A stretch of 64,000 nucleotides of DNA from the IMG/VR virus record IMGVR_UViG_3300028833_000003; one strand, 5' to 3'. The notes beneath the pieces were generated by a model. The model saw nothing but the letters and a program-made list of their open reading frames with translations, was not told the DNA's origin and ran no database searches. The stretch is from a virus. The translations under genes and the position numbers were made by a program. This document shows, piece after piece, positions 38,907 to 64,000 of this stretch; position 1 is the first letter of the stretch, and every line of letters begins with the position of its first letter.

Positions 38907-38908
38907 TT

Positions 38909-43024: not shown

Positions 43025-43057
43025 ATATATAGAATAAGGAAGAAAGAGGATTGTTGT

Positions 43058-46000: not shown

Positions 46001-46936
46001 GCATTTGATAAATTTGAAGATCGAAAGAAATTGATGGCAAAATATTTGTGGTTAGTCTGTGATAAAAAGAAAAAGATTAATTTACAGAATATGGCTGGGT
46101 TAATTAGACGTGATATGTTACCAGACGAATTAAAGAAACAACGAGCAGTATTTGAGTTTAATCGTTATTTAAGAGATAAGTGTGCTAAACAACCAGGAGT
46201 TTATCAATTAGATGATAGAGCATTAGGTTTTCTTGAAAAGTATGATGCAGAGTTCCCATTAACAATTGAAAATAATACATACTTATTAGATGCAAAGTTG
46301 TGGGAGCGCGAGTATAAAGTTCAAATGGACATTGTGCGCGAATGGATGAAAGACAATCAAGAAGATGCACTTTATCGGTTGAATAAAGAAATCTTTTTGG
46401 AAGATTGGAACAAATATGCGAGTGGCAATTATTCATCTTGGGAAATGGAAGTAATGTGTTTCTATGATCATCCTCACGAATTGATAAATGTAAGTAAATA
46501 TAAGTATGGTATTATGAATTACTTTGATTTACCAGAAGAGCCAATCGTAGAAACGTTGTGGCGTGGTCGTATCCCGATTTATAAGTTGTCGCGCATATTT
46601 GGTACAGTTATCGCAAAGAATAAAACAAAATCTCAGGTAACACTTTTGACACCAGAAGGTGTTGTAACAGTTAAATTCACAAAAGAATATTTTGCAATGT
46701 TTGATAGACAAATTAGTCAAAAGAACCTTGATGGAACAAAACATGTCGTTGAAAAATCTTGGTTCAATCGTGGTAGTATGATTATGGTTACTGGAATGCG
46801 GCGCGGTGATGAGTTTGTAGCAAAGAAGTATTCTGCAACACCTGGTCATCAGCTGTATAAAATTATTAAAGTCAATACTGATGGCACAATCGTCCTGCAA
46901 GACCAGCGAGCGCAAGGAGATTTAGAAGATGAATGA
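43058..46936 (+). CDS. dnaE: DNA polymerase III alpha-type replicative polymerase (PHP plus Pol IIIa core plus OB)
   Basis: The PHP N-terminus has HNHTMYS and ITDHE, followed by Pol III alpha fingers/palm motifs (GPGRGSA, PDIDIDL). 1,292 aa with no TAG. Confidence 0.9.
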   Translation: MAFFNDHNHTMYSNLRLIDSINKPKDLIDYAIQLGLSGIAITDHEALCCHIEVNQYAQKIKEQHPDFKIALGNEIYLTDTREPRQNYYHFILIAKDALGHKALRILSSKAWYNTYYASMERVPTLKSELAEVMQEYKGHVIATTACIGGELGQNFLHQRIMLKAGLADTQAEQNIREYLDFCINLFGDDFYIEVAPGESEEQIYVNKRLWEIAQEYNLKIVPGTDSHYLKKELRFAHKAYLNSKDGEREVDTFYEYAYLMSEEECRQHLHASFDDNTIDWMFECTQTMQNSIQDYSLERPQQIPTVKIDPPAPCAWWGVNNPFADDFGKGGCYELIGSLFTSKEPQERQWINDVWDALADKIGYWGEHEDYVARIQTEAEVIRYIGDRLGTCLFAYFNTFKHYIDLFWDCGSIVGPGRGSATGFLSNYLLGITQLDPMKWDLPWWRFLNKERAELPDIDIDLAPSVRPEIFEKIREERGELGCVQVVTFGTEGTKSAIQTACRGYRAQDDFGKELYPDGIDVDVANYLSSLIPQERGFLWSLHDCIYGNEELNRKPVGLLILELDKYPGLLNIIENIEGIVKQRGIHASGVILYDAEHIYDTAAIMRSKEGDLTTCYDLHMCEAAGDTKYDFLVTEVCDKIIKCYELLKEHYEIPNINLRSFYDHYLHPEHIDVNNPIIWDHLAKGDVLDVFQFNSGVGLAMAKAIKATNPLEMTAANAMIRLMSEPGVESQQDRYIRIRDGGIGLFDKEMRQAHLPENMIEAMHKYCDTYYGCCAIQEQMMQILMDDNIAHFTLKEANDARKIVAKKQMKRIPELRQKVYNAIGDTKKADYIWEVAVRPQLGYAFSLNHSLPYSFVGIQTIILATQFSPVYWNAACLIVNSGAVDPEEKGQTDYAKIAKAVNDIKDRGIVVSPIDINVSEYGFTPNAATNSIMFGMKGLLNVGEDVITTIINNRPYVSFEDFYNRVKLTKQPMIALIKSGAFDKFEDRKKLMAKYLWLVCDKKKKINLQNMAGLIRRDMLPDELKKQRAVFEFNRYLRDKCAKQPGVYQLDDRALGFLEKYDAEFPLTIENNTYLLDAKLWEREYKVQMDIVREWMKDNQEDALYRLNKEIFLEDWNKYASGNYSSWEMEVMCFYDHPHELINVSKYKYGIMNYFDLPEEPIVETLWRGRIPIYKLSRIFGTVIAKNKTKSQVTLLTPEGVVTVKFTKEYFAMFDRQISQKNLDGTKHVVEKSWFNRGSMIMVTGMRRGDEFVAKKYSATPGHQLYKIIKVNTDGTIVLQDQRAQGDLEDE

Positions 46937-47579
46937 GAATGTAAAAACTATCATTGCTATATGCGGTAAATCTGGGTCTGGTAAAGACTCACTTGAAAAA
47001 TTAATGTGTAAGTTGGTTCCTATCGCGCATCCAATAGTCAGTCATACTACCCGCCCCAAGCGGGAGTATGAAACTGACGGCGTAGATTATCATTATGTTA
47101 CTGATGAACAATTCTTAGATTTGGTCGTTCAAGGACAAATGCTAGAAGCAAGTTATTTCAATCATTGGCATTATGGAACTAGTTTGTCCTCTCTACAAGA
47201 CGGATTAAATGTTGGAGTATTTAATCCAGATGGGCTAGATGCTCTTTTGGAAAGCTCACGAGAGCGTAAAGATTTATTTGTACTATGCTATTATCTGGAT
47301 GTAGATGGCAAAACACGCTTGCTGCGTCAGCTGAACCGAGAAGAGCACCCTGATGTTGATGAAATTATTCGTCGATATAGCACTGATGAAGTTGATTTTG
47401 GTGATATTAATCTATTCCCAATTACTGCACTAATTAATGATACTCCAACTGACTTATATGATAATATTTTAATTATCTTAGATGATATTAAAAATTATAC
47501 TTCTCTTTTTGAAAAAGATGAATATTATGATACAGTAAGAAAGGTCATTCACGCGCGAGACAATGACGGTGCATGGTAA
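46929..47579 (+). CDS. Guanylate-kinase-like nucleotide kinase
   Basis: CGKSGSGKDS P-loop. HTTRPKREYETDGVDYHYV is the GK signature. Confidence 0.7.
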   Translation: MNENVKTIIAICGKSGSGKDSLEKLMCKLVPIAHPIVSHTTRPKREYETDGVDYHYVTDEQFLDLVVQGQMLEASYFNHWHYGTSLSSLQDGLNVGVFNPDGLDALLESSRERKDLFVLCYYLDVDGKTRLLRQLNREEHPDVDEIIRRYSTDEVDFGDINLFPITALINDTPTDLYDNILIILDDIKNYTSLFEKDEYYDTVRKVIHARDNDGAW

Positions 47580-47647: not shown

Positions 47648-49885
47648 ATGGGTTTAGAAATTATAAAACGTAATGGTAATTTAGTTCCTTTTGATAAACA
47701 GCGTATTATTGATGCAATTAATAAAGCATTTATTGAAGTCGATGGAAAACTATTTGAAACTGACACTTCACGTAGTATCGCTGATGATGTAGAAAAATAT
47801 GTTGCAATGTAGGGCGAACCAATTCACGTTGAAGCAATTCAAAATATGATTGAGTTCTACCTTATGCAAAGCGAACGTAGAGACGTTGCTAAGGCTTATA
47901 TTCGTTATAGATATAAAAGAGAAATTGCACGTTCATATAACGCAGAGTTTATTGAAGAGATTGGTAAGAAATTACAAGCAAAAAATATTGAAAATCAGAA
48001 CGCGAATGTAGATGAACATTCATTTGGTGGCAGAAAAGGTGAAGCTACAAATTTGTTGATGAAACAGTATGCGCTTGACTTTCTTATTAGTCCTCGTCAC
48101 GCATATAATCACTTGCATAATCGTATCTATATCCACGATTTAGATGCCTATGCAGTTGGTATGCACAACTGTTTATCAATTCCTTTTGATGATTTGCTTG
48201 CGAAAGGCTTTAATACGCGACAAACTGATATTCGTCCTGCAAACAGTATTAATACTGCTTTCCAACTTGTCGCTGTTATATTCCAGTTACAGAGCTTACA
48301 ACAGTTCGGTGGCGTCTCAGCAACTCATTTAGATTGGACAATGGTTCCATATGTTCAAAAGTCATTTGCTAAACATTTTAAAAAGGGCTTGCGCTGGACT
48401 GAAAAAGCGCCTGCCGATTATATTGAAAATGTTCCTGATATGATACCTATTGAGTCACCTATCGCGCAGGACTGGGTTAATGCTTATAAATATGCTATGG
48501 CTATGACAGAGCAAGAATTAAAGCAAGCCGTAGAAGGTATGTATCATAATCTCAATACTTTACAGTCACGCAGTGGCAATCAGTTACCTTTCACTTCTAT
48601 TAATTACGGCACATGCACGCTTCCAGAAGGCCGTTTGGTTATTGAAGCATTATTGAATGGTTCTATTGATGGTGTAGGTAAATTACATCGTACTCCTATT
48701 TTCCCTTGCGGTATTTTCCAAATGATGAAGGGTGTTAATAGAACACCTCGTGACCCAAATTATGATTTATATAGATTAGCATTGCAATCAACAGCAAAAC
48801 GTTTATATCCTAACTATGCTAATGTTGATTGGAGCGGCAATGCCGGTTATGACCCAGCTGATCCAAAAACTTATTTCAGCACTATGGGTTGCCGCACTAG
48901 TAATGGTTTAGATATAAATGCAGAACCTGGTACTAATCCTCAGACCAAAGATGGCCGTGGGAATATCTGCCCAGTAACTATCATTCTCCCTACTATTGCT
49001 ATGGAAGCAAAAGCAGCGTATAAAGATGATAACATTACTAATGATACGATTATTGATTATTTTATGAGATTTTTAGGCAGCGCCATTGAAGATGCAAGAG
49101 ATTGTTTATTAGAACGTTTTGACTATATTTGTTCGCAATCTCCTGAATCTGCCAAATTTATGTATGAAAATGGCACAATGCTCGGGTATCATCCAGAAGA
49201 AGGCATCCGTTCTGCTTTAAAACATGGTACAATTGTTATTGGTCAGCTCGGTTTGGCAGAGTGCTTGGAAATTTTAATTGGTAAAAACCAGACTACCGAT
49301 GAAGGTATGGCTTTGGCCAAACAAATAGAACAATTATTTAAAGAGCGTTGTGCAGAGTATAAGCAACAGTATAAATTAAATTTTGGTGTTTATTATACCC
49401 CTGCTGAGAATCTTTGCTATACTGCTATGAAATATTTCAAACAACAGTATGGTGAAATTAAAAATGTATCTGACCATGAATATTTTACCAATAGCATCCA
49501 TGTACCAGTATGGGAGCATGTTGGTGTGCTTGATAAAATTGAAATTGAAAGTCAATTAACTGGTTATAGTAATGCAGGTTGTATCACTTACGTAGAACTT
49601 GATAGCGGCATTGCTAATAACTTAGACGCTTTGGATTAGATTGTCCAGTTTGCTATGGACAAAGATATTCCATATCTTGCTATTAATGTTCCTAATGACA
49701 CTTGTTTAGAGTGTGGTTATACTGGTGAATTTAATGATAAATGCCCGATGTGTGGCAGCACGCATTTACAGCAATTGCGGCGTGTTACTGGTTATTTAAC
49801 TGGCGATTATAAAACCGCATTTAACTGGGGCAAACAAAAAGAAACAGAAGCAAGAGTAAAACACGTTAATGAATTAAAGGAGTGA
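47648..49885 (+). CDS. nrdD: Anaerobic ribonucleoside-triphosphate reductase NrdD (two in-frame TAGs: 47810, 49637)
   Basis: N-terminal ATP-cone (IIKRNGNLVPFDKQRI). The C-terminal Zn ribbon and glycyl-radical segment (CLECGY...CPMCGS...RRVTGYL) are in frame only through TAG 49637. Track ORFs 47846 and 49655 share the frame. Confidence 0.9.
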
Positions 49886-49889
49886 GAAC

Positions 49890-50372
49890 ATGCGCTACGC
49901 AGGAATTATATATGATGATACCGCCGCAGCGCCGGGTTTAAGTCTCACATTCTTTACCCAAGGTTGTCCTATTCATTGCCCGGGTTGCCATAACCCGGGC
50001 ACTTGGGACCCAGATGGCGGACGTGAATTTACACCAGAAGTATTAAGTAGAGTATTAGATGGACTTACTAAAAATGGTGTAACTCGTAATTTTTGTATTA
50101 TGGGCGGAGAACCGTTAGCTCCATATAATGTTTTTCTTACACATCTATTGGTAAAAACAGTAAGAGAAAAATATCCGCAAATTCAAATTTATTTATGGAC
50201 TGGTTATACATTGGATCAAGTAAAAGAAAATGCAAAGAGCAATCCACATATTGACGCAATTCTATCTAATATAGATTGCATCATTGATGGACCATTCATT
50301 CAATCACAACGTGATATTACATTATTTATGCGCGGTAGTGCCAATCAAAGAATTACATATTTGACGGAATAA
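49890..50372 (+). CDS. nrdG: NrdG, anaerobic RNR activating radical-SAM protein
   Basis: GCPIHCPGCHN cluster motif. Its size and position downstream of nrdD fit NrdG. Confidence 0.85.
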   Translation: MRYAGIIYDDTAAAPGLSLTFFTQGCPIHCPGCHNPGTWDPDGGREFTPEVLSRVLDGLTKNGVTRNFCIMGGEPLAPYNVFLTHLLVKTVREKYPQIQIYLWTGYTLDQVKENAKSNPHIDAILSNIDCIIDGPFIQSQRDITLFMRGSANQRITYLTE

Positions 50373-50389
50373 AAAAAATATGATATAAT
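50361..50389 (+). promoter_or_regulatory. Promoter cassette (TTGACG-N17-TGaTATAAT)
   Basis: -35 at 50361-50366 (inside the nrdG 3' end) and -10 at 50384-50389. Confidence 0.7.
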
Positions 50390-50418
50390 GTACATAGAAA
50401 ATATAAGGAGCTAATAGC

Positions 50419-50898
50419 ATGAAAAAGCATGAAGATGGATACCTCGTAGAGCCAGAAGAATTAGAAGCTCTTGAAAAAGGTGAAAATATTAAATTAGAAG
50501 GCGAAAGCTATCCCATTGATACTGGGTTATCTTTATATTAGGTAAATCAGCAACTCGTTAATCAAATGCCTGTATTATCAAAAGAAATTGCTTATACGAA
50601 ATATTATGATAGTTGGCGCGGTTGGATTAGCGGACATGCTGCTCATTATTATGTTTTTATTTGCCGCGATGGTGGTGAATATACATTCTTTGTAAATCGT
50701 CAAGGTACAGCTAAACCTGGTGTAATTTGGGATAATCTTTGGGATGTTTTTGATCGTATTGGTGATGTCCTTAGTATTGAACCAGCGCCAGAAGGTATGG
50801 ATGATGTTGTAGAAGTATGGATTCGCGCACGCGAAGAAGGTGCGCAGCCACTCGTTTATTATTTCGTAGATTGGGACGAAGGGACGATTGAAGTATGA
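50419..50898 (+). CDS. Hypothetical protein (one in-frame TAG at 50539)
   Basis: ATG lies 9 nt after AAGGAG. It is in frame with track ORF 50566. Confidence 0.5.
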
Positions 50899-51155
50899 AG
50901 AAATTGCTGTGGGATGTAAATCAATTTACTACTCATTCAACGATATATGATACTGATGGTATTTCTCTACAACTATTTGGTCGAGACACGGCAACTCAGC
51001 TTGCCAGTCTTGCAAACTATATTTCGCTCTTAGATGACGATGTACAAATTTTAGTTAATCGCAAAGGCTATGCTAAATTGACTATGCCGCTTGCGCAAGT
51101 ATTAAATACCAAATATTCTAATCAACATAAGATTGAGATTATTGAGGAGGACTAA
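50895..51155 (+). CDS. Hypothetical protein
   Basis: Track ORF with an ATGA overlap. Confidence 0.5.
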   Translation: MKKLLWDVNQFTTHSTIYDTDGISLQLFGRDTATQLASLANYISLLDDDVQILVNRKGYAKLTMPLAQVLNTKYSNQHKIEIIEED

Positions 51156-51156
51156 T

Positions 51157-51414
51157 ATGGCTTATCTTTTGAATACAGTAGAAACGTATCAGGTAGCAAC
51201 TGAGCAAGAAGCACTTAATATGCGTGAAGCGTTTTCTAATCAACCTGAGTATGAATTAGAAAGTTTTAGTTATACTTGTAAATATGATAAAAAGGCTGAT
51301 GAAGACTATGTAGTTGTTAAAGTAAAGAAGTTTGTCAATAAAGAAAAAGATTGCAAACGTGATGTTATAACTAGTATTCTTCCAAGAGCCGGAATAGGAG
51401 ATACCACATGGTAA
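51157..51414 (+). CDS. Hypothetical protein
   Basis: ATG lies 6 nt after GAGGAGGA and is internal to track ORF 51133. Confidence 0.5.
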   Translation: MAYLLNTVETYQVATEQEALNMREAFSNQPEYELESFSYTCKYDKKADEDYVVVKVKKFVNKEKDCKRDVITSILPRAGIGDTTW

Positions 51415-52010
51415 TTGATGCAGAATTTAAATGTGTAAAACAATATGAAGGTTAGGAAGAGCAACTACTTCCTAGACGCGCAACCGCGGGCTCTGCTGGA
51501 TATGATTTTATTGTAGCAGAAGATACAATAGTCCCAGCAATGGAAAAACAATTTTTTGATTTTGAAAAAAGATACCAAGCCTATGTGAAAGAACGGTATC
51601 AGAGCTTTGAAGACTACGCTAAAACTGAAACAGAAGATGGCGCGCTTTCTTTGGATAGGTTAAAGCAATTCTGTAAGTTATGGAAGATTAAACCCACACT
51701 TGTTCCTACTGGCGTTAAGGCAAGAATGCCAAAAGACTATTATCTGCAATTAAGTGTGCGGTCGAGCCTACCTTTAAATGATTGGCTTATTCTTGCTAAT
51801 GGCGTAGGCATTATAGATAGCGATTACTATGATAATCCCGATAATGAAGGGCATATTTTCTTCCAATTAATCAATCTCCATCCTGCTGACATTATTCTCC
51901 ATAAAGGTGATAGGATTGGACAAGGTGTGTTTCTCCCCTACTACACCGTGCTATCTGAAAACACTGTGGTTGATGAACGTACTGGCGGGTTTGGTTCTAC
52001 AAATGGCTAA
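51408..52010 (+). CDS. dut: dUTPase with an insertion of roughly 50 aa (one in-frame TAG at 51453)
   Basis: AGSAGYD (motif 1), RSS (motif 2), GIIDSDY (motif 3), GDRIGQ (motif 4), GGFGSTNG (motif 5). A long insert lies between motifs 1 and 2. Confidence 0.8.
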
Positions 52011-52491
52011 AATTCTCGCATATGACCAGGCTTCGAGAGTATCGGGCTGGTCATTTTTTGTTGATGGGGAGTTAAAAGACTACGGGCACTTTTCCTTTGA
52101 ATTTACAAACTTTGCTCTTCGCTTGCTTAGGATTTGTTAGCAAATGGAGGAGCAAATTAAGAAATACGAGCCAGACGTTATCCTATTAGAAAATATTTCT
52201 CTAGAAGGGAGAGGACCCGTTAATGTATCTACTTTTTAGAAGCTCGCGCAAGTGCAAGGCGCAATGATGATGACTGCGCAAGCGCACGATATTGAAGCAA
52301 AATTAGTTTATCCAAGTGAGTGGAGAGCGAAATGTAATTTCCTTAAAGGTGAAGATAAGCACCGAGATAATTAGAAACGTATCGCTCAATAGTGGGTTCT
52401 ATCAACATTTAATAAAAAATGCACACAAGATGAGGCGGATGCAATATGTATAGGATATAGCGAAACAGCTAATGAAATGATGACGTGGTAA
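52003..52491 (+). CDS. RuvC-like Holliday-junction resolvase (four in-frame TAGs: 52138, 52237, 52372, 52390)
   Basis: ILAYDQAS (Asp1), LLEN (Glu), KLAQVQGA, and QDEADAICIG (C-terminal acidic pair). The frame is open to TAA 52489 only if TAG is sense. Confidence 0.7.
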
Positions 52492-52561
52492 TTAAATGGG
52501 TAGGTCTAGTTGGAAGACATACCCTATTTTTTATATTCAACGAGAGGAGGGTGCTGCCAAT

Positions 52562-53038
52562 ATGGAACAGTATGATTTGCTGGAATACTTTCTAAAATGG
52601 TTTATTCCCTTCGCTTGTGCTGGATTGTTTGCGGTGTGTGTCAAACCACTAATTGATGCTATTAAACGCGGCAAACGCAGTGCGCGCGATGAGGAATTTA
52701 AACGTGCTTTTGAGCATGAAATTGCTCCTGTATAGGAATAGTTACAAACTATTGCTACCAAGAGTGAAAGAGAGGATAGTCGTTTAGAGGGGAAAATTGA
52801 CGGGCTGTCCAAAGAAATTCAGCAGGCCACCGCCGGTTTGCGCGAAGCCATTTTGGTTACTCACTTACGAGATTTAATCGCAGACAGCAAGCGCTATATA
52901 AATCAAGGTTGGTTATCAGCCGATGAGTGGGAAGATTATGATAACAGATATAACGTATATAAAATGCTCGGCGGAAATGGACATATGGATGCTTGGTACC
53001 CCAAAGTAAAAAATTTACCGCAACATCCAGTTATATAA
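52562..53038 (+). CDS. Membrane-anchored coiled-coil protein (two in-frame TAGs: 52733, 52739)
   Basis: ATG lies 10 nt after GAGAGGAGGG. One N-terminal TM segment. Track ORFs 52496 and 52838 share the frame. This is the last plus-strand gene. Confidence 0.55.
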
Positions 53039-53040
53039 AA

Positions 53041-53089
53041 AAAAATAAAGGGACGTAGATAAAAAATCTACGTCCCTTTATTTTTTTTT
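53041..53089. terminator. Bidirectional terminator at the convergence of the plus and minus modules
   Basis: AAAGGGACGTAGAT-AAAAA-ATCTACGTCCCTTT, flanked by an A-run on one side and a T-run on the other. Confidence 0.9.
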
Positions 53090-53492
53090 ACCCTACAACA
53101 GGTGTTTTCTTTTCATTAACCAATGATTCAATATATGCCTTAGTGAATAGATCAAAATCACCTACGACCGCGGTTAGATACTGCTTAGCATCTTCACTTA
53201 ATACTGTAATTACGCTATTGTAAGTTAATTGAAATGCTTCTTTCTGTGCTTCCGCAGTGAAAGCATTTTTATTCTTTAAAGCATTAACATAAGTTTGGTT
53301 CGTCATTTCTACGCAACGAGCAACTGTATCTTCAAACATACTTAAATACTTGTAATATACAGTATCCTCTTGACCAGCTTTATAATTGTCGATCTTTGCG
53401 CGAACCCACTTAACAAAATAAGTAGTCAATATCCCCAAAAAAGGAATGATAACTAACTTAAAAATCTCATTTAAAATTTCAGCCCAATTCAT
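53088..53492 (-). CDS. Holin-like membrane protein (LL-H-type pattern)
   Basis: The chosen start ATG (MNWAEIL...) lies 9 nt after GGAGGA. One N-terminal TM segment (IIPFLGILTTYFV). The long amphipathic C-terminus ending ...YIESLV recalls the Holin_LLH family. No TAG. Confidence 0.55.
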   Translation of the reverse strand: MNWAEILNEIFKLVIIPFLGILTTYFVKWVRAKIDNYKAGQEDTVYYKYLSMFEDTVARCVEMTNQTYVNALKNKNAFTAEAQKEAFQLTYNSVITVLSEDAKQYLTAVVGDFDLFTKAYIESLVNEKKTPVVG

Positions 53493-53712
53493 TGTCATAA
53501 TCCTCCGAATTATCTTCTTCGTTATTATCACTAATTGCTGCTGCATCTTGTATTTCTTTGTATGTTTCACTTATCTTTTTATAATTCTCAATACCTGCTT
53601 TTGCAGTATAACCCAAACGTAAGGAAACATATACTGTTGTTACACCAGCCAAGGCGCTTGAACCAAAAGATGCTAATCCTTGATTAATAACAACAATAGC
53701 AAGAATTGCCAA
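53479..53712 (-). CDS. Two-TM holin-like protein with a charged C-terminus (start unresolved)
   Basis: Track ORF starting at TTG. The frame stays open upstream to 53769 with no ATG or GTG. It has two hydrophobic segments and an acidic tail. No TAG. Confidence 0.45.
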   Translation of the reverse strand: MAILAIVVINQGLASFGSSALAGVTTVYVSLRLGYTAKAGIENYKKISETYKEIQDAAAISDNNEEDNSEDYDNELG

Positions 53713-53764
53713 GAGTGATACAGCATATACGACAATATCTATAATAGTAAGTCGCTTACTCCAT

Positions 53765-55183
53765 TCAAGCGGTCGCTGTTGTCGCTTTCGCTAATTTTTG
53801 GAGCGCTGCTACTAATTCTTTTGCTTCTATCTCACTTGAACACGCCACCTTTACATACCAAGATTTTGGTGTATCAGGTGTGGTAGGTTCAACAGGCACA
53901 GATACAGGAATTAAAAATTCATTCATCATATATCCGGTCTGTCCGTTATACATAATGCGGTCCCATTCAGTGCCATGATCAATAATATCAACAATAGTCC
54001 CAGTTGATATTTTTGCTATTACACCAAAATTAGTGCCCGCGCCAGAACGCATACGCACTGTCGTGCCGCTTTTTGATTTTACTGTTGCCTAGTATAACAC
54101 TGATAAAACCTCCCCTTCTGATGTACCAGCATTTGCTAGTTCTTCTGGTGTATATAAACCCGCGGGGATTGCATAGTGCGTCCAGCCATATGTACCTAAT
54201 TCTTGACGTTTAACGCCAGACTTGCTACCAGCTGCATGCATAAAAGTGCCATCGCCCAGATAAACACCAGTATGTGACATTGGATTAGATGTTGGTGATT
54301 CATGATATAAAGCACAAATCTTATCTTTTGGCATCTAATCAATTGGTCCTTTTCGCACCCAGATACTTGATTTCCATTGTGAAGATGCGCCAGATACTAA
54401 GGAAATACCAATTTGCGCGAAGCATAACTTCGTAAATCCTTGGCAATCATAAACCTACTTACCGAGCCACTTCTTTACAATGTTATAATCAACTTTGTCT
54501 GGATATTGAGCAATACGCGCACGAATAAATTGTTCGGTTGCAATTTGTCCTTGAGCACCATAGATATAACCACAACCTTCTTTACTTAACGCATACTCTC
54601 TGATTACTTTCTCTTTCTCCTATGAGGTCATTACTTCAAATACCTCCTTTACTACTGCACCAGGATAATAAAATTGTAAAATATCCTAATATGTAAAGCC
54701 CATATTTGCCATCTTCTTTGCGCCAACTTGGCTCATACCAACACAATGTCCATTGCGCGCAGTAGTTGTATAGGGGTCATCTTTACTAACTAGCCAAGCG
54801 CGTTCTCCACCCCAGACTTCTTTAGAGCTTTTTATATGTCCGCCATTGCTAGAAGAGAAAGGCACTGGGCTACATAAAGTGTTTTTATATGTTAAAACTA
54901 ATGCATTAGTTGCTTCAACACAACGATAAGTAGCAGCATAAGCATTATCAATTGATCTCGAATATCGATATGCCTAATGCTTAGCGCTATTATCTGTCAT
55001 ATTTTTAATAGTATAAGCATTAGTTCGTGCGGCAATTGCTTGGGCTTTTACAGCTTCATCCGGCCCATTCATTTCACTAGGAACACAACCTAGCAAATAT
55101 GTTTCTGGATGAATATTGATCGTGTCATTAACATTAACGCCCCAAGCTTCCGCATTACTTTCTCTTGTTAAAGTTAATCTCAT
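53765..55183 (-). CDS. Three-domain endolysin: SpoIID-like, NlpC/P60 and SH3 (six in-frame TAGs; plus-strand 'cta' at 54974, 54686, 54620, 54455, 54335, 54089)
   Basis: LLGCVPSEM..P.EAVKAQAIAARTNA and GHCVGMSQVGA...ILQFYYPG are SpoIID-like. YDCQGF ... HTGVYLGDGTFMHA is NlpC/P60. TVRMRSGAGTNFGVI...G..V......W.RI...G.TGYM is SH3. There is no TAA or TGA between the domains. ATG 55183 lies 7 nt after GGAGA and overlaps the upstream TAA. Confidence 0.8.
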
Positions 55184-56343
55184 TATAATTTCTCCAATAA
55201 AAGCGCCCATTGCGCATGTGTTATGGGGGTTTCAACTTCATCTATATTATCTGGGATTTCATAATTTTCATTACGCCCTTGCAATTGATGCATTAATATA
55301 TCGTAATGGTTCTACGTAATTGGAATGTCATAATCCCAATCCAAAGTGTTAATAGCTGGCATAATGGCTGCCATTTGCGCACTTTCTTGTGTTAATCTAT
55401 TAACATGGCCGATAAACTAACGACATAATGTATATGCAGTCATTAAGTCATCAATCTAAAACATAGTTTCATTCTCATCTTCTAATGTATCAATAAAAAC
55501 AAAAGAAGCGCTTCGATAGAATTCATTTGATGTATCTAATGAACAACCTGCTGAACCAACTATTTTAGAGTCTAAAACTGCACATACTTTAACATATAAT
55601 GAAGGTGTTGTGTTAATTTCATTATAGTTTTTTGTACCAAGAAACGATGTTAAAGGAACAATCATAGATGTCTAATTTGTACGTTCCGTATCAATCCAAC
55701 CTAAAGAAACTAATTCTCCACTGTTTGGAGTTAATAATGTTTTATCATTAGGCCCAGCAAATACACCCACAGAATAATGATCAATTGTACCAGTAAAATT
55801 TTCTGGTGGAGACCAGCGCACCGCTACACGATTATAATACTAAGGCCATACTTCTATTTCTACTGGCGCTGGAATAGAAGTATCAATAGTTAAACTACGA
55901 TAGTAAATACGTACATCTACATAACTAATAATAATCGTTCCATTAATTGCGTAAGGCCAAAATGTAATCTAAAAAGTTTGGCTTGTCTTATTAGTCAAAC
56001 CTGTTATTTCATATTCATAACTGCCAAACGTTGAACCATTAATATTGCGAACTGGAAACTCTGAACTTTCTAAATAGTTAGTCCCGAAACCAACTCGTCC
56101 TTTACAATTCATTTCATAGTTAAAATCAATAACAGCTTTTGTAATTTCAACTCCGCCAGGAGGAGGATTACGTAATGTACAATTAATAGAAATAGTAGTG
56201 CCGCAGAATTGTAATTCTTCAACTGCTGCGGCCTGTGGAACATGTATATAAGTCGCCGGAGTTTCGGCGCACTATGAACTACTTTTAATTGGTTGCCCAG
56301 ATGCTATGGGATAATATGTATATTTACAATTTACATTCGCCAT
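55183..56343 (-). CDS. Structural protein with an FN3-like segment (seven in-frame TAGs)
   Basis: One frame is open from ATG 56343 to TAA 55183-55185. 'cta' at 56272, 55969, 55840, 55672, 55456, 55417 and 55312. VAVRWSPPENFTGTIDHYSV is FN3-like. Confidence 0.55.
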
Positions 56344-56366
56344 AGTGCGCCATCACTCCTTATAAA

Positions 56367-56705
56367 TTATTCACCATCATCTGCGTCTAAATCTTCACTA
56401 GAAGAAAAATTAACATACATTTCAAAATTGTCTCCACCATTGTATGTTTCTTGAATAGATGTAATTCTACCTTGAACATCATTTAAATCATAAATATTAT
56501 TACCACTATCACCTTTAATAGTAATACGAGAAACAGTCTGTGGCATTAAAGTATTCAAGAAAGTGGCGGTACTTGCACCAGGAACCAAACTAATATAAGC
56601 ATTGCTTACTAAATCATTCTGTTCCTTGTCATATGTAGTAGTACGACTATAATTTACGAGTTGAATAGCATGAGCTGCGTCACTATTAAAAATAATTGTT
56701 GCCAT
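56367..56705 (-). CDS. Hypothetical protein with an acidic C-terminus
   Basis: ATG lies 8 nt after AAGGAGG and is internal to track ORF 56367..56753. No TAG. Confidence 0.55.
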   Translation of the reverse strand: MATIIFNSDAAHAIQLVNYSRTTTYDKEQNDLVSNAYISLVPGASTATFLNTLMPQTVSRITIKGDSGNNIYDLNDVQGRITSIQETYNGGDNFEMYVNFSSSEDLDADDGE

Positions 56706-56718
56706 TAAAATGACCTCC

Positions 56719-57702
56719 TTATAAATTACCAAATAATAGTATATAACTATCATCTATTGTATTTATATCAGTAGCGCTCGCCCAGCACCATACTGACATA
56801 ATCGCATTAAATAACATATCTTTATTTGTCTATGTTATCTAATTATCTTTAAGTAATTGGCCTACTCTTTTATCAAAATTTGACCGTAAAATTTTTTCAT
56901 CATAACCATCTTTATTTTTTCGCATCTAACAATCCCATAATTTTCCATCACAATCAATAGTGAATGAATCAATGCCTGCCATACAATGCGGAGTTTGTTT
57001 AGGTACTTCTATGGTTCCAAACCATTTATAATAATTCTCTGCATCATAACCGAAATAACGACCAGGCACTTCAATGGTCGGCTTTGCACCGATATCATCA
57101 ATATTAATATATGGTCTTTTTTCTACTAAAGGTATCATTTTATCATGTAATTCCTACGCCCATGCATACCAAACTGTAGAGTCGGTGCGCAAATTAATTT
57201 TAGTTAATGTCGATTTAGTAGATATTTTTAACTAAAAATTATTGGTCGGCATTTTCGTTGGGCAAGAATAAATTAAATGCTCTAGCGCGCGGATTGAATT
57301 TTTATACGCACCTTTCTAACGATTAAAATCATTCATATCTTCTGGACCATCAATATTAAATTGGATATGTAATGTTACATCATATGATAATAATGGCATG
57401 ACGAAATAACGGTATAATTCTGATGTACCGTTTGTAGAAAACATAATATTTTTGATTTGCGGCCATCGCTTTAAAATTGCAGTAATCATTGCTGAAAAAT
57501 ATGGTCCATTAAGTGATGGCTCCATTCCCCATAATCCAATACTGGTAGTTTCTGGGGTGATAGTTTCAAGAATGGTTTTTGTAAATGAACCATTCTTGAA
57601 ACACTCCTAAATGCGTTTATTATCATGCTCTTGATATTGCATACAACAATAAGCACATTTTAAATTACATGCATCGGAAAAATAAATGTTAAGATTTTTC
57701 AT
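56719..57702 (-). CDS. Radical-SAM enzyme with a Twitch/partial-SPASM C-terminal motif (seven in-frame TAGs)
   Basis: N-terminal CNLKCAYC (Cx3Cx2C) at residues 12-19. HCMAGIDSFTIDCDGKLWDC equals C-x12-G-x4-C. Track ORFs 57316 and 56926 share the frame with ATG 57702. 'cta' at 57607, 57316, 57232, 57154, 56926, 56839 and 56830. TAA at 56719. Confidence 0.75.
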
Positions 57703-57793
57703 CTTTTATTTGCACTCCACATAAAGCATTACATAAAACATTACAAAACGAAGTTTCTGTAATATTTTGATTATTATCTTCTTGCCAACGCAT
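57689..57793 (-). CDS. 34-codon Cys-x3-Cys-x3-Cys peptide ORF, translationally coupled to the radical-SAM gene (candidate precursor peptide)
   Basis: MRWQEDNNQNITETSFCNVLCNALCGVQIKDEKS. ATG lies 8 nt after AAGGTG. Its TAA lies 11 nt downstream of the radical-SAM ATG, giving a 14-nt overlap. No TAG. Confidence 0.45.
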   Translation of the reverse strand: MRWQEDNNQNITETSFCNVLCNALCGVQIKDEKS

Positions 57794-57795
57794 TT

Positions 57796-60700
57796 TTATT
57801 TCACCTTAATCCATATTCTATTATTTACAGGAACTGCCTTTTCACCCCAAATTGTGTATTCAGGTACTTCACTAACATAGCCTATAATACAATCAGGATA
57901 CTAAACAATCTCTTCTCTTGTCATAATATCTATCGTACCATTAGGAGCAGCACATACTGCCATACCAGCGTGATAATTTGTTCTATCTTGATATGTATAT
58001 ACTAGAACACGACCAGCAACAGCCACTGGTGTTTTAGCCGTTTCAGTTTCACCTTGCGCAAAACCATAGGTATCAGATACAATAGAAGCGCCTGGTATTA
58101 GACGTTCTTCTGTACGAGTCATAATACCATTGTCATTTTCTTGTACGCAACGTCCAGCTTCTAATTCTGTCGTGCAACGATATTCCGCATAGTCATTCCA
58201 AGCAGCGCCCATTAAAACGCCAGCAGATAAATCAGAATAAATTGCACTACTGCCCAAATATAAACATGCTTTACTACTAGCATTAGCACGCCAAATTATA
58301 GCATCTGTAGTTGGATTTGCAGAAGGACCTGTAAAAACTAATTGTTTTCCTCTTCCAACTGTTATATTTTCAGTTGATGTAATACCAGCTGCCGTTAAAG
58401 CACCTGCAGATGATATATATGCACCTGCTGAAGCACATGGTACAATATTAGTTTGCTCTGCACTACCGCTTGGTGTGGTAGGCGTACCCAATAAATACGC
58501 TGTCCAAGTTGGTGATGTGGCAACTTTAACATTAACAAATTTATCAGTAGTAGTTATCTATGCCCATGTTGGCTCACCACTACCATTTGATTTTAAATAA
58601 TAGTTCTTAGTACCAGCACTAGTAGGAGCGTAGAAACTAGCTGATGTAGTTGCTGTACCATTTAATGTGACAGTACTTCCATCGCCCCATTCAGGCACAC
58701 TAGCACCCATTTTTAAGAATTTACCAGCCGCACCTTTACCTAAACGTGTTGGTGTATTAGCAGCAGACCAATAAATTATATCACCTGCGTGAGTACCAAT
58801 AGATTTAGGAATTGCATAGTCAGAAAAATTTAACTAATCTAATACATTAACCCAACCGCCATTAGTAGTGCTATTTTGAAGAGCACCACCTGCTACGCGT
58901 TTATAATAAATACCATTTGCATTAAATGGAATTGCGAGGTCAGTATAATAACCAGAATTATTTGCATGATTACATCTAATAATATGAGTCCAAGTAGCAC
59001 TAGAAAATGGAGTATCATTTACTTTAACTGCTCCCTATCTAGCAGCACTAATATTGAAATATTGTAAGCCATTCCAACCATAGTCCATACGTGTATTGCT
59101 ACTTAATTGCGTTGATGTAGTTGCAGTTGTAGCATTACCAGACAAAGTACCAGTAATTGTGTATCCACCAGTAATTGTTTTAGCATATGGATCAATAACT
59201 AATGCAGTACCGACACCAGTTTTTGTCGTTCCATCAGCAGATGCAATACCAAAAATACGGAAATTACTATTTAAATTATCTAAAACAATACCCGCTTTTG
59301 TTGTTGCATTTGCGGCAGCACATAAATGAAGTTCTCCACCTTCGCCAGAGCCATCTGGTTTAATATCTATAGTACCATTGAAATAGCTTGGTCCAGCAAC
59401 AGTTAAGTTATATGATGAATTAAAGTTACTATTAACAGCCAATCGAGAAGTAGCTTTAATACCATTGGTTCTAAAAGCGGCGCCTCTACTTTCAGATGTT
59501 ATAAGTCCAATAGTAAAATCAAATAATGAATCTGCTGAAGTATTATATCTGTCACCAATAAAATATGCTTTTTGGCTACCATCATTAAAAATTAATTTTG
59601 GGCCACCTAATGATTCATTATAAGCCGCTGTTGCACCTGTATCTGATCCAGAGACAGTTCCAGTTATCATAACATTGCCATTAAATGTAGTACCAAGTGT
59701 ATTATAGTCTATTGATATTGCATTTTTTGAATATGTAGTTTGCGCAGATGTAGTATAATTAGTATTAAACTATAATAAACCAGATGTATTCAAAATCTAC
59801 CAAGACGCACTAGAATTACGATAAAACTCAAGACCTACGGCAGCTGTTCCAGCACCTTTTAAAACTAATTTACCAGTTTGCGTAGTAGTAGATGAATTAT
59901 CTGCACCATCAATTAATAAACCAGTGGTTGTTGCAGTAATGCGCGCGCTATAATCAGCAGTGCTAGTATTTGTTGCGTGGAAATCAATATATTTACCAAT
60001 TTCCATTACACCATCAGAGCCAATTAATGGCGTACCTCTAAAATAAGCACCAGCTGCTGGGGCTAAATTAGATCTATAATTACTTAAACCAAGAATGGTC
60101 GCTCCGTTGGTTTCATCTAAAATGCGGCGCCAAGATTGCCAAGTGCCATTATTTTTACCGCGCACACTTAACTGTCCAGTTCGATAATCCTAAAAAATTT
60201 CTGTTATCCAAGAATTATTATACCACTGTGAAATTAATGCACCATCTGTCTATTGATAATTCCAAGCAGCTTTAGTCAAGCCAGATACATAGCCTAGTGC
60301 ATTAGTGCCAGGGCCATTACCATCAATACCAAGATTTGTGCTTGTGGTAACTTTAAAATTAGTTAAATTAGATGCGGTGGTAGAAGTATCAGAACTATTA
60401 GCATGATTAACTGTGCCACCATCTACTGCAACAGTTACATCATCATATGCAATCGCTCCAATACTTGTAGTAACATCAGGATAAACTTCAATAGATGTTT
60501 TTTTATCATCCGCTGTTGTATTATTTACTTCCGTACTTGCAAGCAATGTCCATGCATAATTAGCACCTTCTAATAAGTATGCATATGCACGCATATAAGT
60601 ACCACATTTTACATACACATCACATTGCGCAGATTGACCAGAAGCACCTTTACGAGCAATTCTAACATCACCAACTGCAAAACCATAACGCACTATCCAA

Positions 60701-63700
60701 GTAGCGCTTACTGAAGTTGCTGCTGGCGGGTCTGCACTAGCATTATTAGCACGAGCAGAAATTTTAATAACGCCGTATTTACCACCAGAGTATCGAGAAT
60801 GTATAAATAAAATTGCATCTCTATCAACATATGAACCAGTTCCTAAATTAGTAGTAGCTACACGATGCCAAGGATAATGATTAGTATTACCAGAATTAAC
60901 AGTAACATAATTATGATACCAAGTTAATGCTGTTGGAGTACCATTATTAAGATAAATACCTCTACACTCACTGCCAACTGTTGTTGTACCTAATTTAGAT
61001 GCTGCACCAGTCAAATTACCAACAAAACCATTAGTTGCAGTTACGCTGCCTGGGAAAGTGCTATTACCACTAGTATCAAATAATTTAATTTCTTTAGCAA
61101 CTATATTAGAAGTATTGTAACGTCTAACTACAATCTATTCGTTATTACCATCATCGCCAACAGCAATTTCTAATAAACCAGCATTCGCGGTTTCTTCTAA
61201 ATGACGAATCCAACCAGCATCATTATTTCCATTACCATTTAATGGGTCAGCAAATGCAATAGCGTTACTATAAATAAATACACCACGCTTATTACTATTA
61301 TAAGGTAGTTTATCTGGCATACCAGATGTAAGAGCCATACGAATATGGTTTCCTCCCGCTGCGGAACCACCTTGTACCCACAACCCACCTGTCTAAATCG
61401 TTGTTGCACCATTGATAAATAAAACACTACCATCTGTTTGTTCTGCGTGCTAACCAATTGTTAATTTAGGTACTGATATACGCACACCAGTTGCAAGCGT
61501 AGTTCCAGTTGGAGCATGCAAACGTATATTACCTTCTGAATTATAAGACTTAGCATTGTCAGTAACACCAATGTAACAATAGCTTAAACTATTTGCAGAA
61601 CCAAAATTACCAAAATTACTTAAAATAGATGTTTTATCATTTTTATAAGCATCAAATACTGTCCAAGCCCAACCGCCACCGCCATCTTTAACACGAGAAC
61701 TAAAAAATTGACTAGTATTTTCTGAGCCATAAAACTAAGATGTACCTAAAGTTTTATAAGTTTCGCTTAAATCCCCAACATATGATGCGGCAATAGCAGA
61801 ACCGTGCCAAGTACCAGCAGTAATAGTACCAACTTTTGTAATTTCAGTTAAATTTTTTTCTGTTATAATTCTATAATTCTTATTAGCAGTCAAACCAGTA
61901 GCAACTGTTGGTAAATAATATGTTTCATAATAACCGGTAGTAGTAGTCGTAGCAGGATTATTAGGACTATATTGACGCCAATTCCATATGCCTGTTGTTA
62001 CATTAGTTGCATCACCTACATCATACCAGGTTTCAGCTACTCTATTAAGAGCATTATTTCGTAATACTATATCTTTGATATAACGAGAAGTCGAACCCCA
62101 ATAACCATATCCACGTACATCTAGTACATAGTTACCAACTAACGGTGCCATAGTAGTAATAGCATTATCTTGATTAATTGTAAATAAAGCATTTGATTTA
62201 GTTGAGCCATGATTATGCAACCAAATGCCTCGATTACCAGTATCTGTCCCAGCACTATATAAATAAATGTCACCAGCATTGCTTTGTGCTTTTACATTAA
62301 TTTCTTTGCCTGATGTTGTTCTACCAGCAACAATATGAGAATTAGTATGTATTTGTTTTGTTACGCCTAAACCGCCACCAATACGAACTGCCCCGTTATT
62401 ATAGTCAGTAGCATCTTGAGTATATTGTATATTGACTATATTACCCGCTGTGGCATCACCATAGCCCATAATAATCGGGCCACCGTTTATATTTAAATAT
62501 AGTCCTTGTTCTGATTCATTAACTTCAGTTCCACGATTACCATCTGAATCACAACCAGAAATTCCACGGACAATTAAAGCATTTGAACCAGCAGAACCAA
62601 TAATATGCACACTGCCAGTTAAATACGATGCCGCGCCAGTGGCAATACCACCACCAACTACTAATGCGCCAGTTGTAGAAGAAGTTGATGCCGTAGTGGC
62701 TTTAATTTTTACTGTACCCGCTTTATTAATTGTTAATAATCCATTATTACCATAAAGCCCTAATCCAACTGCATTTTCTGCATTGTTAGAACCATAATAA
62801 TGGAACTCAAGTACTGCCTAATTATTAGAACCATTACTCACACCTGTCATTAAGCATGTGTTACCACCGCTAGCTAAATTAGGAACTAAATGATTAATAC
62901 CCCAAGAATAAGTACCACTTTTCACCACAGTTGCTGGCGCGTTTGAGGTTAAATTAATCATACCTTTTGCGGCACTATCTGTGGCATTTGGATTATATTC
63001 TACTGTAGTTTGACCAGTGAATAACGCTCCGCCATTTTCATAAAAACGAATTTGTGCATCTGTTCTTGCAGTTGTACCATTATAAGTTGTATCTTTAACA
63101 TAACTAAATAATAAATCATCTGTATATGAAGAATCTGTATAGGAACCAATTTCCCAAGATCCATTACTAGTTTTTGTTGATACTACTGGTGAATAACCAG
63201 GAATTGAAGTTATTGCAATCAAAGCATTATCTCTGCCTTTATGCCAAGAAGATGCAATACCAGCTCTTGTAATAATATGACTTGTAATAAATTTAGAACC
63301 ATCCCAAGTTAAAGAACCACCTGATAACTTATTCGTTTGATTATAGGTAGTAAATAGTAATCGAGTATTACCATTTAAACCCTAAATTGCTAATGTCCCC
63401 GCGCTATTGACGTCACCCATTTGGGCATCATCACCGACTTTATTCCATGTGTTATTAGCGAAATTCAATGCGCCGGTCATAGTCCCGCCAGCCAATGGTA
63501 AATATTTATTAACTCCTAATGCGGTAATCATATTGGCCTTACTAACCCAGTAAGTTTTGCCACCATTTGCAAATGAATCAATCGCAAGAAAAAATTCTGC
63601 GGCGCTACCTTTTTCTGGTAATGCTACATTATCTTTCCAGCTTAATGGCGCGGTCATCTAACCGCCTTCTATAATTTGCGGTTTAAGAGTAGTAGTATAG

Positions 63701-63756
63701 AGCGTATCAGTTACTCTGGCGCTCCCTTGTATCAATGTATCTTTTAATTGTGCCAA
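57796..63756 (-). CDS. Giant tail fibre (1,986 codons, 15 in-frame TAGs)
   Basis: TTG start lies 7 nt after AAGGAGG (MAQLKDTLIQGSARVTDTLY...). Eight track ORFs (63382, 62818, 61735, 61135, 60250, 59797, 59035, 57901) share one frame and are separated only by TAG. Composition is Gly/Ser/Thr/Asn-rich with repeated G.AGKFL...P.W-type motifs. TAA at 57796. Confidence 0.75.
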
Positions 63757-63768
63757 TGTAATTCCTCC

Positions 63769-64000
63769 TTAACGCTCTATAAATTGTGTAGCATTAACAC
63801 TAAACATTTTTTTACTTATTTGCGCAGGTTTATTTAAATCTTCTTCTGTTTCAGTAAAATGAGAAGCTTCAAATATACCTGTTCTTTTTATTTGTGGTTT
63901 AAACTCATTGTCAGCAATATACCACTATAAATGCCGTACTTTCCATGTAACTGGATTAGACTATCCGTTGGTTACTAGCCCTAAACTTGAATAGTCTCTG
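63769..64000 (-). CDS. 3' end of an upstream structural gene (partial, two in-frame TAGs)
   Basis: The frame is open from the window edge to TAA 63769-63771, with 'cta' at 63961 and 63925. It lies directly upstream of the tail-fibre RBS. Confidence 0.5.

Follow-up and report, generated by a model that had tools for sequence, protein, structure and literature searches.

A large gut phage replaces CAG with TAG as a glutamine codon block by block, sparing replication and RNA-repair genes

Phages that read the TAG codon as glutamine (genetic code 15) in only part of their genome have been described several times. Block-structured examples include 'Phage 2' of Ivanova et al. (2014) and the beta and zeta groups of crAss-like phages (Yutin et al. 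2021, PMC7886860), and the Mgcod study (bioRxiv 10.1101/2022.06.29.495998) described genomes divided by code, in which an early block is dual-coded, TAG serving there neither as a sense codon nor as a stop, and the code switches where the coding strand changes. Borges et al. (bioRxiv 10.1101/2021.08.26.457843) reported recoded structural and lysis genes next to standard-code replication genes, and proposed that recoding controls lysis. A further case is phAss-1 of the proposed Phassvirus (PMC10607447), a large, tRNA-rich gut phage that has a tRNA-Sup-CTA and in which TAG encodes Gln in ∼28% of open reading frames (ORFs). Here we describe the use of TAG in a 64,000-nucleotide stretch of the virus record IMGVR_UViG_3300028833_000003 (the window), in which TAG is a third glutamine codon that replaces CAG to an extent set by the gene block, and which encodes its own suppressor tRNA with a CUA anticodon (tRNA-CUA).

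With the block-structured code-15 phages, the window shares the reading of TAG as Gln in part of the genome, recoded late genes, a dual-coded early block, a suppressor tRNA of its own and, for its most TAG-dense block, a switch at the change of coding strand. Unlike them, this phage is not crAss-like and has a Firmicute-type replication module, its recoding is graded over four gene blocks (TAG/(TAG+CAG) of 0.03, 0.29, 0.58 and 0.80) rather than binary, and genes with TAGs are found on the 'early' strand as well. Features in common with the model of Borges et al. are recoded structural and lysis genes, standard replication machinery, a recoded nuclease in the early region and a strongly recoded transmembrane (TM) protein in the lysis cassette, which we call holin2. 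As in phAss-1, there are genes for the DNA polymerase III alpha subunit (Pol III alpha), NrdD/NrdG, PhoH and dUTPase, and recoding varies between close relatives (PMC10607447); differences are that a holin carries TAG in two of the three genomes of the phAss-1 group, and that the two phages are distant (Pol III alpha 37% identity).

The window represents ∼38% of a gut phage of ∼169 kb: its Pol III alpha protein is identical to one encoded on the 168,974-bp ENA metagenome contig ERZ27257202:k141_292341, and TAG is already read through in the public gene calls of that contig. No near-identical deposited phage was found by megablast, the sole match being 0.7 kb of nrdD with 75% identity to Thomasclavelia phages. 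Together with Pol III alpha, which is ∼37% identical to the versions of Enterococcus phages, SPbeta-like phages and phAss-1, this nrdD match hints at a Firmicute-like host. For the comparison of codons, ∼85 related loci were gathered, and pooled tallies were made over 42 non-redundant loci, window included. In the building of gene models, TAA and TGA alone were treated as stops, and the choice of starts was guided by Shine-Dalgarno sites, homology and the public gene calls.

In a tally of stops over 74 gene models, 52 end in TAA, 22 in TGA and none in TAG. The counts of sense TAGs comprise 78 in 18,824 codons. A first-pass annotation of the window had counted TAGs by hand, and its minus-strand figures are exact (tail fibre 15, radical SAM 7, FN3-like protein 7, endolysin 6, partial gene 2); its 37 TAGs on the plus strand are recovered as well, given a homology-supported start of the RuvC gene at 52003, and the curated genes of 14987-23390 and 33834-47579 contain no in-frame TAG, as it had stated. 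The genes fall into four blocks, listed here with the codon fractions used below:

1481-14884, plus strand: block A, 18 protein genes among 25 tRNAs; 23 TAG, 17 CAG and 49 CAA; (TAG+CAG)/all Gln 0.45; TAG/(TAG+CAG) 0.575
14987-47579, plus strand: block B, 40 genes, 10,479 codons, 32.6 kb (RNA-repair island, gyrase A/B, RNase H, ligase, DnaB, primase-like gene, DHH, PIF1, Pol III alpha, guanylate kinase); 4 TAG, 146 CAG and 229 CAA; (TAG+CAG)/all Gln 0.40; TAG/(TAG+CAG) 0.027
47648-53038, plus strand: block C; (TAG+CAG)/all Gln 0.39; TAG/(TAG+CAG) 0.286
Minus strand: block D, 41 TAGs in 3,645 codons; (TAG+CAG)/all Gln 0.41; TAG/(TAG+CAG) 0.804

This block-level pattern is statistically overwhelming. 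Block B holds 56% of all codons, yet has 4 TAGs where 43.4 would be expected (binomial P ∼1e-21), and when TAG labels were shuffled among all Gln codons the observed heterogeneity was reached in none of 20,000 trials. The modular usage that had been proposed from the first inspection is therefore non-random at the level of blocks, and the TAG-poor block is larger than that inspection had indicated, as it also takes in gyrase A/B, RNase H and DNA ligase. Block B reads alike under codes 11 and 15 (it is 'dual-coded') and none of its genes stops at TAG. The GC skew changes sign at ∼53 kb, the site of the coding-strand switch, and the densest block begins there, at 53040-53086; 37 TAGs nevertheless lie on the plus strand. 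The TAG-bearing or otherwise informative genes of the three plus-strand blocks are the following:

3028-3828, plus strand: PhoH, block A, 4 TAGs
11338-12480, plus strand: block A gene with 5 TAGs
13598-14884, plus strand: permease, block A, 2 TAGs
23559-24008, plus strand: 149-aa ORF, an exception in block B, one TAG at codon 44
32830-33837, plus strand: second exception in block B, 335 aa; N-terminal TM helix (hydropathy, 1-26), coiled coil and C-terminal Pfam GIY-YIG domain (residues 243-322)
Block C, plus strand: NrdD, 2 TAGs; NrdG, none
50419-50898, plus strand: block C gene with 1 TAG
51408-52010, plus strand: dUTPase, block C, 1 TAG
52003-52491, plus strand: RuvC-like resolvase, block C, 4 TAGs
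52562-53038, plus strand: TM and coiled-coil protein, block C, 2 TAGs

The three TAGs of the GIY-YIG gene are at codons 3, 27 and 53, and a public gene call likewise gives 335 aa; an alternative start at 33007 drops the TAGs, yet opens a 234-nt gap. Its architecture, a GIY-YIG domain after a TM helix and a long coiled coil, is unusual. Homologs of the 149-aa ORF pool to 2 TAG and 8 CAG (four non-redundant loci, window included).

The same division is seen among relatives. Over the 42 loci, GyrA, GyrB, NrdG and the homologs of 27718-28344 and 51157-51414 have no TAG at all, and NrdD has 7 TAG against 141 CAG, compared with 32 against 33 in the TM-coiled-coil protein. RuvC is the most recoded family (59 TAG against 29 CAG, 21.7 TAG per 1000 codons, 26 non-redundant loci, window included) and has conserved TAG sites: the codon after the catalytic Asp is TAG in 7/10 genomes and that within 'TF-TAG-KLA' in 9/10. 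These tallies also bear on a mosaic origin, in which the TAG-free block would have been acquired recently from standard-code phages or hosts, with no time for TAG to appear. Two RNA-repair genes do look foreign in their Gln codon usage (14987-16519, 14 CAG to 2 CAA; 18609-20012, 16 to 3), a hint of separate acquisition. However, most block B genes share the CAA-over-CAG preference and the T/C bias (0.70-0.81), GC content is alike in all blocks, and GyrA/B, NrdG, Pol III alpha and NrdD are TAG-free or nearly so in relatives at 40-75% protein identity. A TAG-free state across such diverged relatives is therefore old and maintained, which makes a mosaic origin very improbable.

The meaning of TAG was read from 114 alignment columns that contain it, using the real codons of relatives at the same positions. 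Gln (CAA or CAG) is 6.05-fold enriched in these columns, while Tyr (0.26-fold), Leu (0.57) and Trp (0.24) are depleted and Ser is at 1.5. A reading of TAG as Ser, Leu or Tyr, which the class II-like arm of the suppressor tRNA had led us to suspect, is ruled out by this six-fold enrichment of Gln and the depletion of Tyr, Leu and Trp. At residue 70 of the endolysin, TAG is aligned with Gln in 109/109 homologs and is a true Gln codon in L003, one of the relatives; a comparison of NrdD with homologs in the PDB was uninformative on the meaning of TAG (S, A and R at two variable positions). TAG is thus a glutamine codon, and since (TAG+CAG)/all Gln is steady at 0.39-0.45 across the blocks, it takes the place of CAG, from which a single C-to-T transition separates it.

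The sole point in favour of reading the TAGs as real stops in fragmented pseudogenes or as assembly errors is that ORF calling under the standard code breaks up the region. That reading is refuted and its probability is negligible: Pfam domains flank TAGs on both sides in the endolysin (SpoIID, NlpC/P60, SH3), PhoH, NrdD, the Xan_ur_permease and the radical SAM protein, homology continues across TAGs whose columns are occupied by Gln, a tRNA-CUA is encoded, and the window contig and many of its relatives occur in independent assemblies.

To judge whether 0.80 is a high TAG share, other synonymous choices between T and C in the same blocks were used as a neutral yardstick:

TTG/(TTG+CTG): block D 0.97, block B 0.70
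TTA/(TTA+CTA): block D 0.91, block B 0.81
T3/(T3+C3), third codon positions: block D 0.84, block B 0.77
TAG/(TAG+CAG): block D 0.80, block B 0.027

The late-block share of TAG is approximately the level that mutation bias by itself would yield were TAG freely readable. With a T-over-C bias of 0.84-0.97 and a TAG share of 0.80 close to it, the late value can be explained without any positive enrichment of TAG in lysis genes; TAG looks to be tolerated without restriction in late genes and removed from early ones, and it is the depletion outside the late block that calls for an explanation. The base after a sense TAG is A in 35/71 cases (49%) and T in 18%, compared with 30% A and 36% T after CAA or CAG in the same genes (chi-square P = 0.013). 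An A after TAG is a context that favours amber suppression, and this bias fits selection for good read-through context.

Block D contains the tail and lysis genes, all encoded on the minus strand:

53088-53492, minus strand: predicted holin (holin1), 134 aa, N-terminal TM helix (residues 4-28) and soluble domain; PHROG 13712 'holin', E = 1.6e-25; 0 TAG, 2 CAG and 3 CAA; closes the minus-strand unit, two genes away from the endolysin
53479-53835, minus strand: holin2, 118 aa from GTG 53835; TAGs at codons 3, 8, 9 and 15
53765-55183, minus strand: endolysin, SpoIID, NlpC/P60 and SH3 domains (Pfam), 472 aa; 6 TAG, 1 CAG and 12 CAA
55183-56343, minus strand: FN3-like protein (fn3 below the Pfam threshold), 386 aa; 7 TAG, 1 CAG and 8 CAA
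56367-56705, minus strand: 112-aa protein; 0 TAG, 2 CAG and 3 CAA
56719-57702, minus strand: radical SAM protein (Pfam Fer4_12 and Radical_SAM; PHROG radical SAM), 327 aa; 7 TAG, 0 CAG and 6 CAA
57689-57793, minus strand: peptide ORF, 34 aa, three Cys (MRWQEDNNQNITETSFCNVLCNALCGVQIKDEKS); 0 TAG, 0 CAG and 3 CAA
57796-63756, minus strand: tail-fibre-like protein, 1986 aa; 15 TAG, 2 CAG and 32 CAA
63769-64000, minus strand: 3' end of a partial gene that runs off the window; 2 TAG in 76 codons

In L004, the closest relative, the homologs of several of these genes have a similar usage: 6 TAG and 1 CAG in the FN3-like protein, 0 TAG and 3 CAG in the 112-aa protein, and 8 TAG and 0 CAG in the radical SAM protein. 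The L004 homolog of the tail-fibre-like protein has a weak Pfam match to Gp34_trimer. The Cys-rich peptide ORF had been cited as a TAG-free gene of this module; the count of zero is correct, but says nothing about avoidance because the ORF has no CAG either. It overlaps the start of the radical SAM gene by 14 nt and encodes a CxxxCxxxC motif; the radical SAM protein itself has a CxxxCxxC motif at residues 12-19 (read by eye) and a Cys-rich C-terminal part (241-258). The two ORFs (56719-57793) make a pair within the tail/lysis module that resembles those for ribosomally synthesized and post-translationally modified peptides, with seven TAGs in the radical SAM gene.

The first-pass annotation had further proposed that the suppressor tRNA gates the endolysin and virion genes and leaves both holins ungated, as neither holin was thought to contain a TAG. 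For holin1, whose profile match, TM helix and position near the endolysin make it a predicted holin, the absence of TAG is correct. In the window alone this absence is not significant (P = 0.21 per codon and 0.12 per Gln codon; 0.027 per NAG codon), so we turned to 10 non-redundant relatives in which the same SpoIID endolysin lies beside holin1. The pooled counts in these relatives are:

Holin1: 1 TAG, 45 CAG and 28 CAA
Endolysin: 20 TAG, 29 CAG and 112 CAA
RuvC: 31 TAG, 9 CAG and 54 CAA
TM-coiled-coil protein: 13 TAG, 17 CAG and 72 CAA

TAG is significantly rarer relative to CAG in holin1 than in the endolysin (Fisher P = 2.7e-6), and its share of all Gln codons is 1/74 and 20/161, respectively. 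Avoidance by holin1 persists where holin1 and the TM-coiled-coil gene are inverted as a pair, each onto the other strand (L003 and L006), but fails in 31 more distant homologs (23 TAG against 63 CAG). Within the clade, plausible reasons would be dosage precision, toxic TM-only truncation products, or expression before suppression is effective. The holin1 and TM-coiled-coil genes (52562-53492 in the window) lie at the tips of convergent units, and their inversion as a unit (L003 11209-12249, L006 5705-6748) swaps which operon each gene ends.

Recoding of the endolysin, for which 120 full-length homologs were found, is unstable and not conserved. The TAG/CAG counts are 6/1 in the window, 1/12 in L004 and 0/1 in L003, with ∼2-4 TAGs in other relatives. 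Lysis genes are not preferentially recoded by this measure, TAG making up 6/19 Gln codons of the window endolysin and 15/49 of the tail fibre. A second cell-wall-binding protein (7457-8140, plus strand), with PG_binding_1 and PHROG endolysin matches and 3 TAGs, is encoded inside the tRNA array, a long way from the lysis cassette.

For holin2, the gene model decides the outcome. The claim that this gene is TAG-free holds from a TTG start at 53712, but that codon is in the middle of TM helix 1 of the protein and downstream of an LE[FW]SK(K/R)LTI motif that is conserved in all relatives. In none of 10 genomes is there an ATG, GTG or TTG between the endolysin stop and the LE[FW]SK motif; the nearest start is 17-25 codons upstream, within the 3' end of the endolysin gene, and in the window GTG 53835 is the only canonical one. 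The first 70 nt of holin2 thus overlap the endolysin in another frame (53765-53835). Database homologs of holin2 are 101-125 aa and all have a basic tail ahead of LEFSK, in several cases Gln-rich (for example, MQKQSQVQSKNSQKRKQQKSKLEFSK), and the 77-aa JGI gene call on this genome is a truncated holin2. Over the last 24 endolysin codons synonymous codon identity is 64%, compared with 48% over the preceding 76, as expected if this 3' end codes in two frames; these comparisons suggest that the overlap is truly dual-coding and that it is conserved in the 10 genomes. A short, TAG-free holin2 could in principle be expressed from an internal promoter at 53768-53741, but the 9/12 consensus match of this promoter is at chance level and it was not credited.

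The resulting 118-aa protein has no Pfam or PHROG match, and is built from a basic N-terminal tail rich in Gln, Lys and Arg, a strong TM helix (residues ∼30-52), a second hydrophobic stretch and an acidic C-terminal tail. Starting at GTG 53835 it has four TAGs in its first 15 codons, which probably makes holin2 one of the most TAG-dense genes of the window. The tail contains at least one TAG in 8/10 clade genomes, that is, the window and 7/9 relatives (minimum counts of 4 in the window and 1, 2, 1, 0, 0, 2, 2, 3 and 1 in the nine relatives). It is also Gln-rich, with 8 Gln in 22 residues, and its 4 TAG against 2 CAG is the usual late ratio. By architecture alone, the two putative holins resemble the two-component holins of Firmicute phages, SPP1 gp24.1/gp26 and PBSX XhlA/XhlB, as two small membrane proteins beside an endolysin, holin1 with one TM helix and a soluble domain and holin2 with two hydrophobic segments.

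These results make gating of endolysin and virion genes with ungated holins improbable. In its favour are the contrast between the endolysin and holin1, both in the window (6 TAGs against none) and in relatives (20 TAG to 29 CAG against 1 to 45), and heterogeneity among the genes of block D (NAG codons, Monte Carlo P = 0.004). However, the only tenable start of holin2 gives it four TAGs, endolysin recoding is nearly or fully absent in L004 and L003, TAGs are found in the holin1 homologs of more distant phages and in a holin of two of the three phAss-1-group genomes, and the late block has no TAG excess over T/C bias. In addition, a holin, once triggered, is lethal to the cell with or without endolysin, and gating of the endolysin alone would therefore not guard against premature death. 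What does stand from this proposal is that of a recoded phage dependent on a suppressor tRNA, whose late, tail and lysis genes need TAG read-through and whose replication and RNA-repair genes do not.

An adaptive lysis timer, as in the model of Borges et al. proper, would instead have TAGs positively selected in lysis genes and other dangerous late genes, which would hold back their products until the phage had changed the code of the cell, with the code switch as the clock. Support for such selection comes from the cluster at the 5' end of holin2, with its tandem pair of TAGs and its retention in most of the clade, and from the recoding of nucleases even in or near the early block (GIY-YIG with 3 TAGs and RuvC with 4, the latter with the conserved columns described above); Borges et al. 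also report preferential TAG in crAss amidase, spanin and an intron endonuclease. Unlike in that model, the late block of the window has no more TAG than the T/C bias predicts, endolysin TAGs vary from 0 to 6 among close relatives, and one holin family avoids TAG. The holin2 tail may simply follow from its Gln content, and no Pfam family of a release-factor or aminoacyl-tRNA synthetase 'code-change module', such as that of the Jade phages, was detected among the window genes scanned, including those by the lysis cassette. There is also no significant 5' bias of TAGs inside genes (quintiles 21, 14, 15, 13 and 8; Kolmogorov-Smirnov P = 0.38). In single-TAG genes the codon does lie within the first 30% of the gene in 8/8 cases, which we discount because such TAGs are the most exposed to errors of start-codon choice. 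Overall, a selected timer appears unlikely.

The suppressor tRNA lies in an array of 25 tRNA genes (646-10630). This tRNA and the regulatory elements predicted near it and at the block boundaries are:

8310-8338, plus strand: sigma-70-like promoter with extended -10 (TTGATT-17-TATAAT, TG); consensus match only
8715-8807, plus strand: tRNA-CUA, 93 nt (ARAGORN; Rfam tRNA model, 55.8 bits)
14872-14919, plus strand: terminator-like hairpin followed by a TG-extended -10 promoter match, at the boundary of blocks A and B (consensus scan)
53040-53086: bidirectional terminator-like hairpin, 20-bp stem with A and T runs at its flanks, between convergent units

The variable arm of this tRNA is long, its 1:72 pair is mismatched (A1.C72), it has G73, and its CCA is encoded in the gene. 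A scan of IMG/VR with its anticodon arm returned 74 loci (L087-L160), and ARAGORN predicts a tRNA-CUA in 62 of 75 stretches (these loci and the window), 46 of the 62 being 86-95 nt long. In an alignment of 27 distinct members, the cloverleaf is joined by a variable-arm helix that shows compensatory changes and is capped by a conserved (C)UGAAG loop. Position 1:72 is always weak or mismatched (U-A, A-U, U.U or A.C) and G73 is invariant in all 27, as expected of tRNA-Gln, but the variable region of ∼23 nt with a helix of 4 bp departs from the class I, short-loop shape of tRNA-Gln. On these alignments, the family is a predicted Gln-type acceptor on a class II-shaped body that is widespread in IMG/VR phages. 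A supE-type amber suppressor is alike in its CUA anticodon, weak or mismatched 1:72 and G73, and unlike in that the window tRNA has a variable-arm hairpin of 4-5 bp and a class II shape, as in tRNAs for Ser, Leu and Tyr. We know of no tRNA-Gln with such a hairpin, and no description of a suppressor tRNA family with a long variable arm was found in the literature searched.

Several other features of the array were noted. Two tRNA-Leu genes (2788-2863, anticodon UAG; 5016-5092, AAG) are 76-77 nt long and do not have the long arm expected of bacterial tRNA-Leu; the UAG copy is the window tRNA closest to tRNA-CUA (78% identity), and the AAG copy is 69% identical. Sub-threshold matches to cow-rumen-3 RNA (42 bits) and YrlA-like RNA (32-36 bits) occur at 5165-5295, 6056-6125 and 8826-8932, one YrlA-like match being directly 3' of tRNA-CUA, and in relatives, matches to cow-rumen-3 and cow-rumen-4 RNA exceed the gathering score (L132 1062-1157 and 5788-5855; L154 2912-2981). 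A DUF2828/DUF7788 gene and the RNA-repair genes RlaP and cREC are close to these RNA elements. An HDV-like (theta) ribozyme by the suppressor tRNA (cf. Kienbeck 2024) was not detected by Rfam in 1-12000 at E up to 1, a search that did not apply those authors' RNArobo descriptor.

The promoter match at 8310-8338 precedes a TAG-free cREC gene (8376-8714, Pfam cREC_REC) that abuts tRNA-CUA. Among all predicted elements, only a few pairs of terminator and extended -10 and the bidirectional terminator look credible. Three pairs of a hairpin and, a few bases downstream, a TG-extended -10 match (12479-12542, 12967-13015 and 14872-14919) frame single genes or gene pairs in the manner of moron cassettes, with a secreted protein in one case and a nucleoside deoxyribosyltransferase and permease in another; these genes are still TAG-bearing.

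We regard constraint combined with permissive drift as the most economical mechanism, and as a likely one. Genes needed while suppression is absent or weak would be held TAG-free by purifying selection, while CAG-to-TAG transitions would be tolerated, and drift towards mutational equilibrium, in genes whose expression follows the build-up of the suppressor. Replacement of CAG is almost nil in block B, which begins at a terminator-like hairpin and a host-type promoter match, is partial in the flanking plus-strand blocks, and has reached the level of the T-over-C bias in the convergent minus-strand tail/lysis block. As a consequence, and not necessarily as a selected purpose, full-length tail fibre, radical SAM, RuvC, GIY-YIG, endolysin and holin2 proteins would need the tRNA. 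The parts of the lysis cassette would be affected differently, through a 5' cluster of four TAGs in holin2, the output of which should drop with approximately the fourth power of read-through efficiency, six dispersed TAGs in the endolysin and a holin1 that is kept TAG-free.

A number of observations weigh against constraint with permissive drift. The labels 'early' and 'late' come from gene content, strand and consensus matches, and since the scans for promoters and terminators returned totals no higher than in shuffled sequence, we can only infer the timing of expression. Several TAG-bearing genes of block A are preceded by sigma-70-like promoter matches, as is tRNA-CUA, so a simple rule that early genes are TAG-free misfits part of the window. 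Several 5' TAGs hinge on which start codon is chosen (GIY-YIG, holin2 and the single-TAG genes). The agreement with T/C bias fits neutrality but leaves room for selection of TAG at specific sites, for example at RuvC column 152, which is TAG in 9/10 genomes. Finally, the analysis covers 64 kb of ∼169 kb, the head genes lying outside the window, and the Fisher P values err on the optimistic side, as the relatives lack phylogenetic independence.

A more elaborate scheme would be a two-key lysis lock that is read out by the genetic code. Holin1, being TAG-free, may build up regardless of the state of the code. Its partner holin2, translated from a start within the endolysin gene and through four TAGs, would rise in output with approximately the fourth power of suppressor activity, and this dependence may turn the code switch into an ultrasensitive lysis clock. 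The variable-arm hairpin of the suppressor could serve as a handle that controls its charging or activity. We consider this lock, with the hairpin as a possible control handle, decidedly unlikely.

Block-wise TAG recoding of late genes has already been published (Yutin 2021; Borges 2021; Mgcod), and no new principle is introduced here. The window adds a clean and quantified case outside the crAss-like phages, in which a one-for-one replacement of CAG at the level of the T/C bias argues that selection acts on the absence of TAG from early genes and not on its presence in lysis genes, a distinction of direct relevance to the adaptive 'lysis timer' hypothesis. The holin2 model shows that the choice of a start codon can make or erase a key observation, and the conserved avoidance of TAG in one holin family, next to a partner laden with TAGs, provides a concrete pair of genes for tests. 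The family of suppressor tRNAs with a long variable arm is probably the feature most deserving of separate study.

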